This document shows positions 57,135 to 61,760 of a DNA stretch of 64,000 nt, piece by piece; positions within the stretch are counted from its first letter, which is position 1; every line of letters starts with the position of its first letter. Under the pieces are notes generated by a model, which saw nothing but the letters and a program-made list of their open reading frames with translations, ran no database searches and was not told where the DNA came from. This DNA comes from Candidatus Bathyarchaeia archaeon. GTDB lineage: Archaea; Thermoproteota; Bathyarchaeia; Bathyarchaeales; Bathycorpusculaceae. The position numbers and the translations under genes are program-made. The DNA is taken from assembly GCA_038727135.1 (NCBI GenBank), contig JAVYWL010000001.1:512001-576000 (forward strand), given 5' to 3'.

Positions 57135-57560
57135 TTAAGCTTCATTTCCTGCTTTCTGCTCTTCTTTAGGTGGCTGGGGCTTTTCCCTCACCTCTCCAGC
57201 CTTCTTACCCTTAGGCTTTTCAACAATCTTCATATTCACCTGAACAATCTCGTCGGTGATAATGTTTCCACGAACCCTCTTTCGTCTCCGTTCCCCCTCA
57301 TCCTGCGGGTTAAAGCCAACCCCGCCGCTTAACACGACGTTTCTTCGCACTCCACCATGAACGTTAGGTCTCATTGGGAAGCCATCCTTATCGGAGCCGC
57401 CGGTAATCTGAACCTTAAAACCTGGTAAGCCGACAACTGAACCGTCTATTATGTCGCCTATTTTCTTCCCGATTAACGGAACCGCTCGCGCATCTTCCAA
57501 CTCTACAGTCTTCGAAGTACCATCCTCAGGATCCGACACTATAACCTTAAATTTAGCCAT
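57135..57560 (-). CDS. rps6e: 30S ribosomal protein S6e
   Basis: ITGGSDKDGFPM, GERRRKRVRG. Confidence 0.96.
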   Translation of the reverse strand: MAKFKVIVSDPEDGTSKTVELEDARAVPLIGKKIGDIIDGSVVGLPGFKVQITGGSDKDGFPMRPNVHGGVRRNVVLSGGVGFNPQDEGERRRKRVRGNIITDEIVQVNMKIVEKPKGKKAGEVREKPQPPKEEQKAGNEA

Positions 57561-58905: not shown

Positions 58906-60363
58906 TTATTCTACATGTACTCTGTAGACGTCTATGTCTTCCCTCATTTCTGGTGTTAACTCTAGGAACTCCCTAACGGATCTTTCAATATCTTTTGACT
59001 GCGTTACATAGCGTCCAACAACAACTATGTCGGCGCCCTTCTCTAACGCCTCTTTCGCGGTTTCTGGAATTATCCCACCAGCCACGGCTATAAGGAACTT
59101 CTTATCCTTGAATGCTTGCCTAAGTTCTTGAATAAGCTCTAGTCCAATGGTTCTGCCGGTCTCCTCGTCTATGCCCCTATGAATAATGATAATGTCTGGA
59201 AAGTCTCTGAGAGTTTTGAGTTTTTTTATCGGGTCTTCAACATTAAGCATGTCAATAGCCGCATAAATCCCAAGCCTTTTCGCCTCATAAATGAAGGCGT
59301 CTAAGGTTTCGGTGGGCGCTAAACCAGCCGCTATGACACCGTCAGCCGTCTCTTCATAGGCTATGTCCACTTCCACCTTCCCAACGTCGAGAGTCTTCAA
59401 ATCCGCCATGAAGAATATGTCTTTGGCGACCTCTCTAAGCTCGCTTATCACTTTGGTGCCGTAACGCTTTATGAGCGGTGTGCCAGCCTCCAGAATTATT
59501 CTGTCGCTTCTTGGAATTTGCATGATAATCTTCTTAGTTCGCTCTAAGTCAGGTATGTCGAGGGAAATCTGCAGGTAAGGTGGCCTCCAAAGGCGTGGCA
59601 CTCTGTAACCCAGCATTGGATGCTTAGCCCTATCCTTGTCGTAGAAGACCTTCTCCAGTGAGGGATACCTCGCCATAGCCCTCTTCAAAGCCAACTTCGT
59701 TGCGCTATAATTGTAATGGTATATTTTTCGGTAGTCACTAGCCTTCGGATGGACAAAGACGCTGCACACGACAACCCAGTCGTCAACCTTATCTTTCGGG
59801 ATTATGCCCTCTTCAACAGCATCTGCAATGGCCTTAGCAACAGCCGCTTGAGCCGGGCCAAAAACTTTGTTGGCATCCTCAAGATTCTTTATTGTCACTT
59901 TGGGCACAAGCAAAGTATGCGGTTTAGGCGGAAGATTAGGCCTAATAACAGCCAAAAGTGGCGTGTGCCCCATAGAAAGGTGCGCCAGACCATTTGCAAA
60001 GGCCTCGCCAACAGGCCCATCCTTGTCGCCTATTAAGAGGTCTATATGAGCAACTTCGTTCCCTTCTCCGACAAGAGCCTCTCCGATAAGATAAGTGTAA
60101 CCTTTAGAAGGCTGCGGAACACCCGACACTTCAGCAGCAGAAACGCCAGCAGCAACCTCATCAAAATCGACATTAAACTCCCTAAGCCAGGAATAAAGCG
60201 TATCCCTATGAATCCCTAAAATTTTTGCTGTCCCGGAAACTGTTGCCTTTGCAGGTTTACCCGACAGAAGAGTGCGTGCTTCCACCTCTTTCCTAGCGGC
60301 ATCCGTCAAAATTCTGACGAATTCTTCACGAGTTTCAGGCTTCTTAAAGTACCTTTCCGACAT
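58906..60363 (-). CDS. fae-hps: Formaldehyde-activating enzyme/3-hexulose-6-phosphate synthase with an extra N-terminal HTH
   Basis: IGEALVGEGNEVAHIDL and FGPAQAAVAKA (Fae); LQISLD, EAGTPLIK, DLKTLDVG (Hps); TAKILGIHRDTLYSWL (HTH). Confidence 0.92.
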   Translation of the reverse strand: MSERYFKKPETREEFVRILTDAARKEVEARTLLSGKPAKATVSGTAKILGIHRDTLYSWLREFNVDFDEVAAGVSAAEVSGVPQPSKGYTYLIGEALVGEGNEVAHIDLLIGDKDGPVGEAFANGLAHLSMGHTPLLAVIRPNLPPKPHTLLVPKVTIKNLEDANKVFGPAQAAVAKAIADAVEEGIIPKDKVDDWVVVCSVFVHPKASDYRKIYHYNYSATKLALKRAMARYPSLEKVFYDKDRAKHPMLGYRVPRLWRPPYLQISLDIPDLERTKKIIMQIPRSDRIILEAGTPLIKRYGTKVISELREVAKDIFFMADLKTLDVGKVEVDIAYEETADGVIAAGLAPTETLDAFIYEAKRLGIYAAIDMLNVEDPIKKLKTLRDFPDIIIIHRGIDEETGRTIGLELIQELRQAFKDKKFLIAVAGGIIPETAKEALEKGADIVVVGRYVTQSKDIERSVREFLELTPEMREDIDVYRVHVE

Positions 60364-60497
60364 TTACCGCTTCCTCCAGAGATGTAATTCTTTGAAGAGT
60401 TATTTAAATTTGTCGGATCATATGTCGACTTAGGTTGGTTCTTGTAAATTATGTTTTCAAATATGTCGGATATTATCATTGTATACAGAAATGTTTT

Positions 60498-60575
60498 TGG
60501 TGCTCCGGCCGGGATTTGAACCCGGGTCCGCGGCTCGAGAGGCCGCTATACTTGACCGGACTATACTACCGGAGC
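60498..60575 (-). tRNA. tRNA-Glu(CTC)
   Basis: Cloverleaf with GCGGC-CTCTCGA-GCCGC anticodon arm, GGTTCAAATCC T-arm, encoded CCA. Confidence 0.96.
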
Positions 60576-60607: not shown

Positions 60608-60991
60608 TTAATTTGCTTTCCTCTTATCCTTTCCTTTATCTTTTTCTTCTTTTTCTTTTAGTTTTAGTTCTTCGACCGTGTGTGCTTTTTGGAGTTGTTT
60701 CATGTACCACGCTCTTTCCTTGGCGTAGTGAATGCTTAGGGCTATGCCTAAAATGAGGAGGACTAAGCCCGCTAGTGTTAGGGATAAGCCTAAAAAGCTG
60801 TAGGGATGTGATGTTAGATGGTATGGTATTATTAGGAACCATTCTGGGTTTTCTACTGTTATGACGGTTTCTAGGAGGCCTCCGACGAAGAATATCGCGC
60901 CTATTATGGTTATTAGGTATCCTATTGTTTCGTTGTGTCTTGATTCTTCGGCCTTTTCATGAAGGTATTCGCTAAGAAGCATTAAATCCAC
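60608..60991 (-). CDS. Two-TM membrane protein
   Basis: Two hydrophobic helices and a charged tail. Confidence 0.7.
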   Translation of the reverse strand: MDLMLLSEYLHEKAEESRHNETIGYLITIIGAIFFVGGLLETVITVENPEWFLIIPYHLTSHPYSFLGLSLTLAGLVLLILGIALSIHYAKERAWYMKQLQKAHTVEELKLKEKEEKDKGKDKRKAN

Positions 60992-61139
60992 GATTTGTGG
61001 CGTGGGGTGGATGGCTATAAATGTTATTTTGAATTCCGAATTCCAGAATGCTTTCCGACATGGTGAGTGGCTAATTCAGGTTTAGAAAAGCCTATATGCA
61101 TAGCTACTGTTAGTCGTTTGTTGCAACGGCTAAAGTGGT

Positions 61140-61760
61140 TTGATGCCTTTCAAAGACGAGTGTCAACTTTGTGGAAGGGTTCTTCCCTACAATTATCTTA
61201 GGCGGTGTTGGAGATGCGGGAAGCTCTTCTGCATAGACTGTATGGTTCCAGAAGTATCAACCGGAGACGCTTCAAGACTGCTTTGCCTTAACTGTGCAAG
61301 GAAGATTGTTTCTCCAAAGTCTAAAGCCAAATACGAGCCTCTTAAGGGATATTTGAAGTTTAGGGCAGCATTCACAGATTCCGTTAAGCTGTCTTTTGCC
61401 CAAATAGACGGGATTATCGGGGATAATCTTCCAATGGAGGCTTACCGCTCTGAAAGCTGGTGGGCAAATTCTCCTGACACTGTGCATGCGCGGTCTTGGC
61501 TTGATGCCGGATGGGAAACCAGCGAAGTGAACTTGAAAGAAGGTTATGTAATCTTCCGAAAAGTGAAGAAAATTCCATGTGTGGATCTTCCAAAGAAAAG
61601 GGAGGCTGAGGAGCCGAAAAAGCCGTTTACACCGCCGCCCTCAAGGATTATGCGACGCAAGAGGCCTTCAAAAACAAAGATTGCAAAGCTTTACGCTAGG
61701 CTTAAAAACTTGGAGAGGCAGAAGACTGCTCCCAAAAAGCTTAGAGGCAGCTTCAAATAG
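61140..61760 (+). CDS. Cys-rich Zn-finger domain fused to a 'WWAN'-motif domain
   Basis: Four CxxC pairs, then KYEPL..YL...LSFAQIDGIIG..LP..A....WWAN...SWLDAGW. Confidence 0.75.
   Translation: MMPFKDECQLCGRVLPYNYLRRCWRCGKLFCIDCMVPEVSTGDASRLLCLNCARKIVSPKSKAKYEPLKGYLKFRAAFTDSVKLSFAQIDGIIGDNLPMEAYRSESWWANSPDTVHARSWLDAGWETSEVNLKEGYVIFRKVKKIPCVDLPKKREAEEPKKPFTPPPSRIMRRKRPSKTKIAKLYARLKNLERQKTAPKKLRGSFK

Follow-up and report, generated by a model that had tools for sequence, protein, structure and literature searches.

A Fae-Hps enzyme of Bathyarchaeia with an N-terminal helix-turn-helix domain and a candidate operator array at its own gene

Can a central metabolic enzyme of an archaeon also be the transcription factor that controls its own gene? 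The question is raised by a gene in a 64,000-nucleotide stretch of DNA (the window) from the 1.55-Mb genome of a hot-spring Bathyarchaeia archaeon. The gene encodes Fae-Hps, a bifunctional protein made of formaldehyde-activating enzyme (Fae) and 3-hexulose-6-phosphate synthase (Hps), preceded by a helix-turn-helix (HTH) domain. In the reverse ribulose-monophosphate route, Hps splits hexulose-6-phosphate into ribulose-5-phosphate and formaldehyde, and the latter is condensed with tetrahydromethanopterin (H4MPT) by Fae. An earlier reading of the DNA (the original prediction) proposed that an enzyme and a transcription factor are combined here in one protein. Our analysis confirms the fusion, and the proposed double role is supported in silico by comparative evidence: the added domain has a predicted HTH fold, and a DNA word, TCCGACA, is arrayed at the gene itself and co-occurs with the domain. 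The word, which appears to be cognate to the fused HTH, is new here. We consider Fae-Hps to be an autoregulating trigger enzyme, probably a repressor, with a probability of about 0.62.

The body of the protein looks like a normal Fae-Hps enzyme. Pfam matches Fae (PF08714) to residues 93-250 (E 8.3e-73; 244.1 bits against a cut-off of 27) and OMPdecase/HUMPS (PF00215) to residues 262-465 (E 2.6e-30; 106.4 bits against a cut-off of 27). The NCBIfam model of bifunctional Fae/Hps, NF009833, reaches 577.7 bits (cut-off 274), with model positions 2-390 of 392 aligned to residues 91-484. By curated score, end-to-end coverage and the presence of both domains, the 485-residue protein belongs to the Fae/Hps family. 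The ratio of non-synonymous to synonymous substitution rates (dN/dS) is 0.023 in this part, and this value and the many invariant columns suggest catalytic activity in both halves. NF009833 begins to align only at residue 91, so that the ~90 residues before it have no counterpart in the family model. The predicted architecture was borne out: a single intact open reading frame of 485 codons places an HTH domain (residues 1-68) ahead of Fae-Hps (91-484), and the additional stretch divides, as had been proposed, into an HTH part and a linker, the first conserved (1-68) and the second variable (69-90). The peptide ATVSGTAKILGIHRDTLYSWLREF corresponds to residues 40-63.

It could be argued that the extension is an annotation artefact, with the real start near Fae and an upstream frame that is open by chance. 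An in-frame GTG at codon 79 would provide such a start. However, a Shine-Dalgarno sequence is present ahead of the ATG but not ahead of the GTG, and both the start codon and its distance from the promoter are conserved in 97 genes. In an alignment of 21 sequences spanning the order, residues ~6-68 are strongly conserved and P, T, H-R-D-T-L-Y, W, V and F are invariant; synonymous codon variation at these invariant residues is free. Within the genus, dN/dS over 45 pairs is 0.085 for residues 1-68, compared with 0.22 for the linker and 0.023 for Fae-Hps, which places the N-terminal domain under purifying selection. AlphaFold2 models the domain with a confidence of 85. The artefact reading is already contradicted by these data, and we attach practically no likelihood to it. 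A stop or frameshift separating HTH and Fae, which the original prediction had itself named as fatal, was looked for in sequencing runs that were usable as assembled contigs only. DNA contigs from two independent hot-spring studies contained no indel within 58906-60363, and one independent hot-spring contig spans Fae, the linker and the recognition helix (59267-60189). Contigs of relatives at low depth, over 58929-60184, came from an RNA-library run; they do not demonstrate transcription. Annotators are given a reason against trimming the extra 90 residues from such gene models.

The fusion is widespread within the lineage. A word-indexed search with residues 1-92 returned 313 proteins at E ≤ 0.01; among the 120 listed, 114 are 470-495 residues long and all 120 carry PF08714. 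The full-length fusion (a match from residue 1-7 to the end) is present in 30 of 41 related genomes. Scanning species-representative genomes for [IV]HRDTLYxW located 335 places that encode a relative, and of the 80 loci kept from these 79 are titled Bathyarchaeia or Bathyarchaeota and one 'uncultured archaeon'. The genome under study has no paralogue of the N-terminal domain, and a free form of the HTH was not found with the queries used: in all 80 metagenome loci fetched with P0139 the HTH frame either continues into Fae-Hps or is truncated where the contig stops. Two candidates for stand-alone HTH proteins were rejected. In G025 the match stops at the end of the contig and represents a clipped fusion, and the short best matches in a profile search of 1.84 billion representative proteins are fragments of the fusion.

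What kind of domain has been added? For the isolated domain, AlphaFold2 predicted helices at residues 10-32, 40-47 and 51-60 of the domain model with a mean pLDDT of 85.2. In the full-length model (pTM 0.51) the N-terminal helices retained pLDDT values of 82-91, the linker fell below 50, and the HTH was not docked confidently on the enzyme. As modelled, the domain is a tri-helical HTH fold. Structural comparison with 48,161 representative chains using VIA-align gave a top 50 composed entirely of DNA-binding HTH domains, with Z-scores of 4.4-6.2, a range that by the tool's own warning is common for small helical domains. They include sigma region 4, TetR, AraC, the DNA-binding domains of NtrC1 (Z 5.3) and NtrC4, and the small terminase of phage P22 (Z 4.6).

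The clearest sequence relatives lie in phages. The profile search mentioned above gave 106 matches; beyond the fusion fragments at its head, the informative ones among the distant matches, at E 1e-17 to 1e-22, come from small terminases of phages (PF16677) and share the motif PT..G.A..L.VHRDTLY.W.KE[FY]. Alignment of the N-terminal domain profile with the PF16677 terminase small-subunit HTH by hhalign gave a probability of 98.3% (E 1.6e-14, 42% identity over 36 columns). Judged by these profiles, the fused HTH is homologous to the HTHs of terminase small subunits, its clearest relatives. In searches with the full protein, the Pfam scores were 20.5 bits for HTH_23 (threshold 24.6), 20.0 for HTH_28 (25) and 13.9 for HTH_8 (22). 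At E ≤ 0.1, HTH_28, HTH_23 and GP3_package each find all 21 of the 21 family members examined, and HTH_8 finds 16 of the 21. The original prediction had described the HTH as Fis-like. This is loosely right in that a helix precedes the HTH and the recognition helix has the form ...R(D/R)TLY..., as in the HTH_8 domains of Fis and NtrC, but HTH_8 (PF02954) reaches 16.6 bits with the domain alone, still short of its gathering threshold of 22, and the terminase HTHs are the clearer relatives. Unlike in Fis and NtrC, the HTH of Fae-Hps is N-terminal, no sigma-54 activator is involved, and the sites look monomeric and asymmetric. GP3_package (PF16677) gives 14.9 bits over the HTH part only, against a gathering threshold of 29.4 that applies to the whole model with its oligomerisation part. 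By these thresholds, the protein belongs neither to HTH_8 nor to GP3_package. The domain profile also detects four proteins of 409-679 residues (P0136, P0138, P0144 and P0150; E 6e-22 to 1e-10) that carry 6-8 tandem HTH repeats of the form ...AEIAKKLGIT..TLY.YLR..NVP....

Which DNA might such a domain recognize? In total, 110 fusion loci were fetched, and 97 unique promoters remained after removal of duplicates; a contig-end fragment in which the motif is present (L013) and a stand-alone Fae (L014) were left out. The recognition helix reads HRDT[LM]Y in 109 of the 110 loci, and the exception, G014, has HRDTLH and both of the sites described below. When the orthologous upstream regions were aligned, a shared TCCGACA emerged, followed after three bases by a TTAWATA box; the distance to the start codon is constant at 50-55 nt. 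The box is found at this distance in all 97 promoters, and the hexamer CCGACA at this proximal site is exact in 94 of them and one letter off in the other three. Its reverse complement, TGTCGG, lies over the start codon in 90 of the 97 genes, in frame as NTG-TCG-G. The codon of Ser2 is here TCG. By comparison, the invariant Ser43 is encoded by TCT (40), TCA (26), TCC (22) or TCG (2; n = 90), and TCG accounts for 17% of the other Ser codons of the fusion genes.

Further copies surround these two sites. At least one additional exact hexamer, in either orientation, lies at -140 to -1 in 83 of the 97 promoters, and the density of the hexamer is 7.64 per kb in this interval compared with 0.51 per kb at -1400 to -400. 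The commonest extra upstream position is -52 to -54, with a direct copy in 37 of 97 promoters. For the 116 extra upstream sites, the distances to the proximal site were scanned for periods between 7 and 15 bp, and a peak appeared at 10.4-10.5 bp. The phasing statistic R was 0.65 for all 116 sites, 0.55 without the -53 class and 0.48 for unique distances; the last two sets were tested, and 0 of 1000 random sets reached their R. In the window, three exact sites fall within 60350-60480 (Table 1), the stretch that the original prediction had named for an electrophoretic mobility shift assay.

The array extends into the coding sequence. The hexamer occurs at 7.04 per kb in the DNA encoding the HTH and linker, at 1.03 per kb in the Fae-Hps part and at 0.33 per kb in 16 HTH-less genes. 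The valine of a conserved Asn-Val-Asp is encoded by GTC, yielding TGTCGA, in 85 of 97 genes, compared with 17% GTC for valine overall, and a conserved Lys-Pro-Thr is written with CCG-ACA in 59 of 97. In the variable linker (+255 to +300), 73 of 97 genes contain an exact hexamer in one orientation or the other under differing peptides: TGTCGG under EVSG, xLSE or xTVG, and CCGACA under xPTx. The site at +343 is present in 34 of 95 fusion genes versus 1 of 16 HTH-less genes.

Table 1. Features of the fae-hps locus in window coordinates; site offsets are counted from the proximal site.
Feature	Position	Strand	Remarks
HTH-linker-Fae-Hps gene	58906..60363	-	one intact open reading frame, 485 aa, ATG start
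Distal site TCCGACA	60464..60470	-	offset -53, direct orientation, exact
Near-site GTCGACA	60423..60429	-	offset -12, one mismatch
Proximal site TCCGACA	60411..60417	-	offset 0, exact; 3 nt upstream of TATA box, in the position of the transcription factor B recognition element (BRE)
TATA box TTTAAATA	60401..60408	-	inferred archaeal promoter; transcription start inferred at ~60374-60380
Shine-Dalgarno GGAGG	60373..60377	-	9 nt upstream of ATG
Inverted site TGTCGGA	60356..60362	-	offset +54; within ATG-TCG-GAA (Met-Ser-Glu)
N-terminal domain, residues 1-68	60160..60363	-	helix 12-34, HTH helices 42-49 and 53-62
Intragenic TGTCGG, codons 33-35 (Leu-Ser-Gly)	60261..60266	-	offset +150, exact; position class +148 to +152
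Predicted recognition helix, residues 52-62, HRDTLYSWLRE	60178..60210	-	H, R, D, T, L, Y and W invariant across the order
Intragenic near-site TGTCGA (Asn-Val-Asp)	60167..60172	-	offset +244, one mismatch
Linker, residues 69-90	60094..60159	-	variable; low model confidence
Intragenic TGTCGG, linker codons 79-81 (Val-Ser-Gly)	60123..60128	-	offset +288
Fae domain, residues 91-250	59614..60093	-	PDB 1y5y match, E 6.6e-46
Intragenic TGTCGGA, Fae codons 97-99 (Leu-Val-Gly)	60067..60073	-	offset +343, exact
Hps domain, residues 262-485	58909..59580	-	PDB 9lj9 match, E 5.9e-30

Is this arrangement peculiar to fae-hps? The heptamer TCCGACA occurs 105 times in the genome, against 162 copies expected from composition, and the only place with three copies within 150 bp is this gene, where they fall within 110 bp; by chance, 0.005 such triples would be expected. 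The combination CCGACA-N2-4-TTWWATA has a single occurrence in the same genome. Across the 41 related genomes, the 16-nt pattern CCGACANNNTTWWATA gave 33 matches in 31 genomes, and a reversed-pattern control gave 15. In 29 of the 31 relatives that bear the gene (including the contig-end copy in G025) the pattern occurs once, at the fae-hps promoter. Of the other two, G019 has it at the fae-hps promoter and once elsewhere, and G029 carries the CCGGCA variant. A search of the other ten genomes did not find the gene. Nine of these lack the pattern as well, and the exception, G035, has two matches before unrelated genes. The extra matches in G035 (two) and G019 (one) precede a membrane protein or KaiC-like ATPase and are accompanied by no further copies. 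They were rejected as targets and, because the control itself gave 15 matches, are taken as chance. The neighbours of fae-hps are housekeeping genes (S6e, aIF2-gamma, Rpb7-like, PIN, DUF359 and an MFS transporter), and none of them is a transcription-factor gene.

If the HTH reads the word, domain and word should come and go together. The 16 HTH-less Fae-Hps genes, taken from other families, classes and phylum-level relatives, contain no hexamer in their 200-nt upstream regions. Losses within one genus, in which the proximal and start-codon sites are both present in 5 of 5 intact genes, point the same way. In G267 (locus L051, G267:C5) the HTH has been cleanly deleted; the first 12 codons are kept, with MSGTEVKKPENR joined to ASGPTYLIGE, and both sites are altered, to CCGGCA and ATGTCAGG. 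In the second copy of G225 (locus L050, G225:C94), HRD has changed to QLD (QLDTLY) and neither site is present. A class-level lineage represented by G068 and G343 (74% identical) has the divergent helix SRDT[IV]ERRLK and a different word: TTGCGGCA lies 3-4 nt after the TATA box and an inverted TGCCGCA lies upstream, giving the pair TGCGGCA/TGCCGCA, which the HTH-less relative G342 does not have. This apparent joint change of helix and word rests on two genomes. A pattern with another spacing, TGCGGCAN{10,40}TGCGGCA, produced one unrelated match only. The two loss cases and the one two-genome variant lineage are what we count as independent support for co-occurrence. By such comparisons, the array is a candidate operator for a putative trigger enzyme, being unique to its gene, phased and found together with the domain.

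We suggest that the N-terminal HTH, on a flexible tether of ~20 residues, would bind TCCGACA as a monomer. Monomeric binding is favoured because TCCGACA lacks symmetry and no partner word adjoins it. Fae domains form oligomers, and the enzyme oligomer would then lend avidity, several tethered HTHs gripping sites on one face of the DNA and wrapping the promoter. Solved Fae accounts for 10 chains in 2 PDB entries, and a Fae-containing fusion for 45 chains in 9 entries, five per entry; from these chain counts we infer a pentamer. The fusion in question is a 290-residue 'Avd' chain (8ub7_B; 9 entries, 45 chains) that matches Fae over its residues 122-286 (E 5.4e-46) and looks like Avd fused to a Fae-type domain. 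The likely outcome at the fae-hps promoter would be negative autoregulation that holds the enzyme level constant, and substrate occupancy may tune it. Negative control is favoured because one site lies in the BRE position, another over the start codon, downstream of the inferred transcription start, and further ones in the first ~350 bp of the gene. That formaldehyde, H4MPT or sugar phosphates would alter this control is conjectural.

The nearest parallel to this layout is viral, the small terminase of pac phages. The HTH core of Fae-Hps is homologous to that of PF16677 proteins, and Bacillus phage SPP1, whose small terminase (TerS, gp1 or G1P) acts at the pac region, is likened to it here by layout. 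According to PMC6316719, SPP1 gp1 binds pacL and pacR, and a paper is cited there under the title '...represses its own synthesis'; the TerS/pac layout described there matches that of the fae-hps sites. Small terminases display their HTHs on a ring and not as a dimer (PMC4737164). The differences are considerable: the HTH of Fae-Hps is fused to an archaeal metabolic enzyme, the terminase oligomerisation domain is absent, the locus has no large terminase, packaging context or nearby viral genes, and its sites are short 7-bp words in helical phase. The homology of the HTH, the SPP1 layout and the ring-like display of HTHs nevertheless suggest, by analogy, that a terminase-type recognition module was exapted. 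A bolder version would have the ancestor of the order capture the whole front end of a viral small-terminase gene, that is the HTH-coding DNA and a pac-like array extending over promoter, ribosome-binding site and coding sequence, and fuse it to fae-hps; the product would be a ring-shaped enzyme that wraps its own promoter by means of peripheral HTHs and whose grip changes when formaldehyde, H4MPT or sugar phosphate occupies it. We regard this scenario as speculative, and somewhat doubtful. If true, a single protein would serve as sensor and regulator of one-carbon (C1) and pentose status, and Bathyarchaeia would gain their first defined pair of transcription factor and operator.

A number of observations weigh against an autoregulating Fae-Hps. 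With the N-terminal domain as query, Foldseek found nothing in the PDB at E ≤ 0.001, a profile search of PDB sequences gave three matches only (E 0.34-0.6), and every Pfam HTH match stays below its gathering score. The start-codon site is absent from 7 of 97 intact genes and the extra upstream site from 14 of 97, and G029, L105 and L130 have one-letter variants of the proximal site. G218 (locus L049, G218:C90), a class-level relative, keeps HRDTLY but uses ACGACA by the TATA box, with TGTCGT upstream; both copies have changed together, which misfits a simple rule of one helix, one word. The variant word of G068 has 149 copies in 1.2 Mb, and the pair is not significantly clustered on its own. 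The HTH-bearing genes form essentially one clade, so that the large counts represent few independent events and speak for constraint. The transcription start is a predicted one, and the operator role of the word is proposed from comparison. Finally, CCGACA replaces the canonical A-rich BRE (compare the GAPDH promoter), an arrangement that would fit activation too.

The last point leads to the alternative that the same HTH and the same sites serve positive autoregulation, the HTH recruiting transcription factor B and the TATA-binding protein from the BRE position. Typical promoters of the lineage, such as those of GAPDH, have cGGAAAA beside the TATA box where fae-hps has CCGACA, and helically phased upstream sites resemble activator arrays. 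Yet the conserved start-codon site and the coding-region sites lie downstream of the inferred transcription start, a placement that is usual for repression, and the closest analogue, SPP1 TerS, is the subject of the title on repression quoted above. Activation thus seems to us unlikely. The protein that binds TCCGACA might also be a separate transcription factor, in which case the fused HTH would be used for partner binding, nucleoid tethering or non-specific DNA contact. The altered word of G218 beside an unchanged recognition helix would be explained in this way, and binding of the word by the HTH is a prediction for a domain whose family assignment is sub-threshold. A separate factor does not readily account for a cluster of words that is confined to one gene without an adjacent regulator gene, for the decay of both sites when the HTH is lost or mutated within one genus, for another word in a lineage with another helix, or for sites within the HTH-coding DNA itself; we consider it quite improbable. 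Still less probable, to the point of being nearly negligible, is an RNA element. TGTCGGA, 54 nt from TCCGACA, is its exact reverse complement, and an upstream UCCGACA could pair with AUGUCGGA in a leader hairpin that hides the start codon. However, the invariant TATA box stands between the two arms, so that the upstream arm should not be transcribed, and extra copies are found further upstream and within the gene. The upstream copies occur in both orientations and in a 10.5-bp phase, a property of double-stranded DNA; helical phase and indifference to orientation therefore point to a protein on DNA and not to RNA.

Autoregulation by Fae-Hps would have precedents among enzymes. PutA and BirA, with which the original prediction compared the fusion, are bacterial enzymes that have a DNA-binding domain and repress their own operon. 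They differ from the Fae-Hps fusion in their established ribbon-helix-helix or winged-HTH domains, classical dimeric operators and known ligand-dependent switching. Within Archaea, a trigger enzyme is represented by RbkR (PMC5397151), in which riboflavin kinase is joined to a DNA-binding domain and the genes under control belong to the pathway of the enzyme itself. It differs in that the only supported target of Fae-Hps is its own gene and in that the sites extend into the coding region. Canonical Fae-Hps, to which residues 91-484 correspond end to end, differs in its front end: both NF009833 and the 16 orthologues from other Thermoproteota lineages start at Fae and have neither the HTH nor the word. 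No paper joining Fae-Hps to an HTH fusion was found in a search of main texts; supplementary annotation tables could record such a fusion. A large survey of Bathyarchaeia (PMC10321748) mentions fae, in the passages searched, only as a widespread gene, and 'helix-turn-helix' occurs there 0 times.

The locus offers a candidate regulator-operator pair that comes with natural negative controls, namely versions in which the HTH is absent, deleted or mutated. Bathyarchaeia belong to the most abundant of the uncultured archaea, and to our knowledge nothing is known of how they regulate their genes. If Fae-Hps does control its own gene, a central enzyme of C1 and pentose metabolism would join the short list of archaeal enzymes that double as transcription factors. 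Its mode of recognition would be unusual: an enzyme oligomer would carry many monomeric HTHs on tethers, and these would grip short words in helical phase that continue into the enzyme's own coding sequence. The parallel with SPP1 TerS and pac suggests that metabolic gene control can make use of a domesticated viral module for DNA recognition.

Other occurrences of the word were inspected as well. Single heptamers lie near Lrp/AsnC, CBS, GAPDH, arginase-family, PIN, Hsp20, dsDNA_bind and permease genes of the genome. GAPDH was rejected as a member of a wider regulon: the site is kept in only 6 of 29 relatives and forms part of an ordinary BRE/TATA element, cGGAAAATTAATTAAG. This element is shared by the GAPDH promoters of the order (L235-L264) and, as a canonical BRE and TATA box, represents an ordinary strong promoter of the lineage. 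Outside the window, the genome has a second, stand-alone Fae paralogue (G000:C2:165984-166490) that shares 49% identity with residues 82-250 and seems to lie behind another gene; no TCCGACA lies upstream of this paralogue, and it was likewise discarded as a target. Directly upstream of fae-hps and on the same strand, 28 nt from the distal site, is a tRNA-Glu(CTC) gene at 60498-60575 (-). Its 3' end, ggccggagcacca, also occurs upstream in several relatives of the same genus, and the tRNA-Glu/fae-hps arrangement is therefore syntenic. The window as a whole contains 8 copies of TCCGACA versus 3.8 expected, a number reached by 5 of 100 shuffles. One exact copy, at 61054-61060 (+), falls in the divergent intergenic region between the genes at 60608-60991 (-) and 61140-61760 (+), and another, at 57532-57538 (+), lies ~25 nt into the 5' end of the S6e gene, where it is read as Val-Ser-Asp codons.

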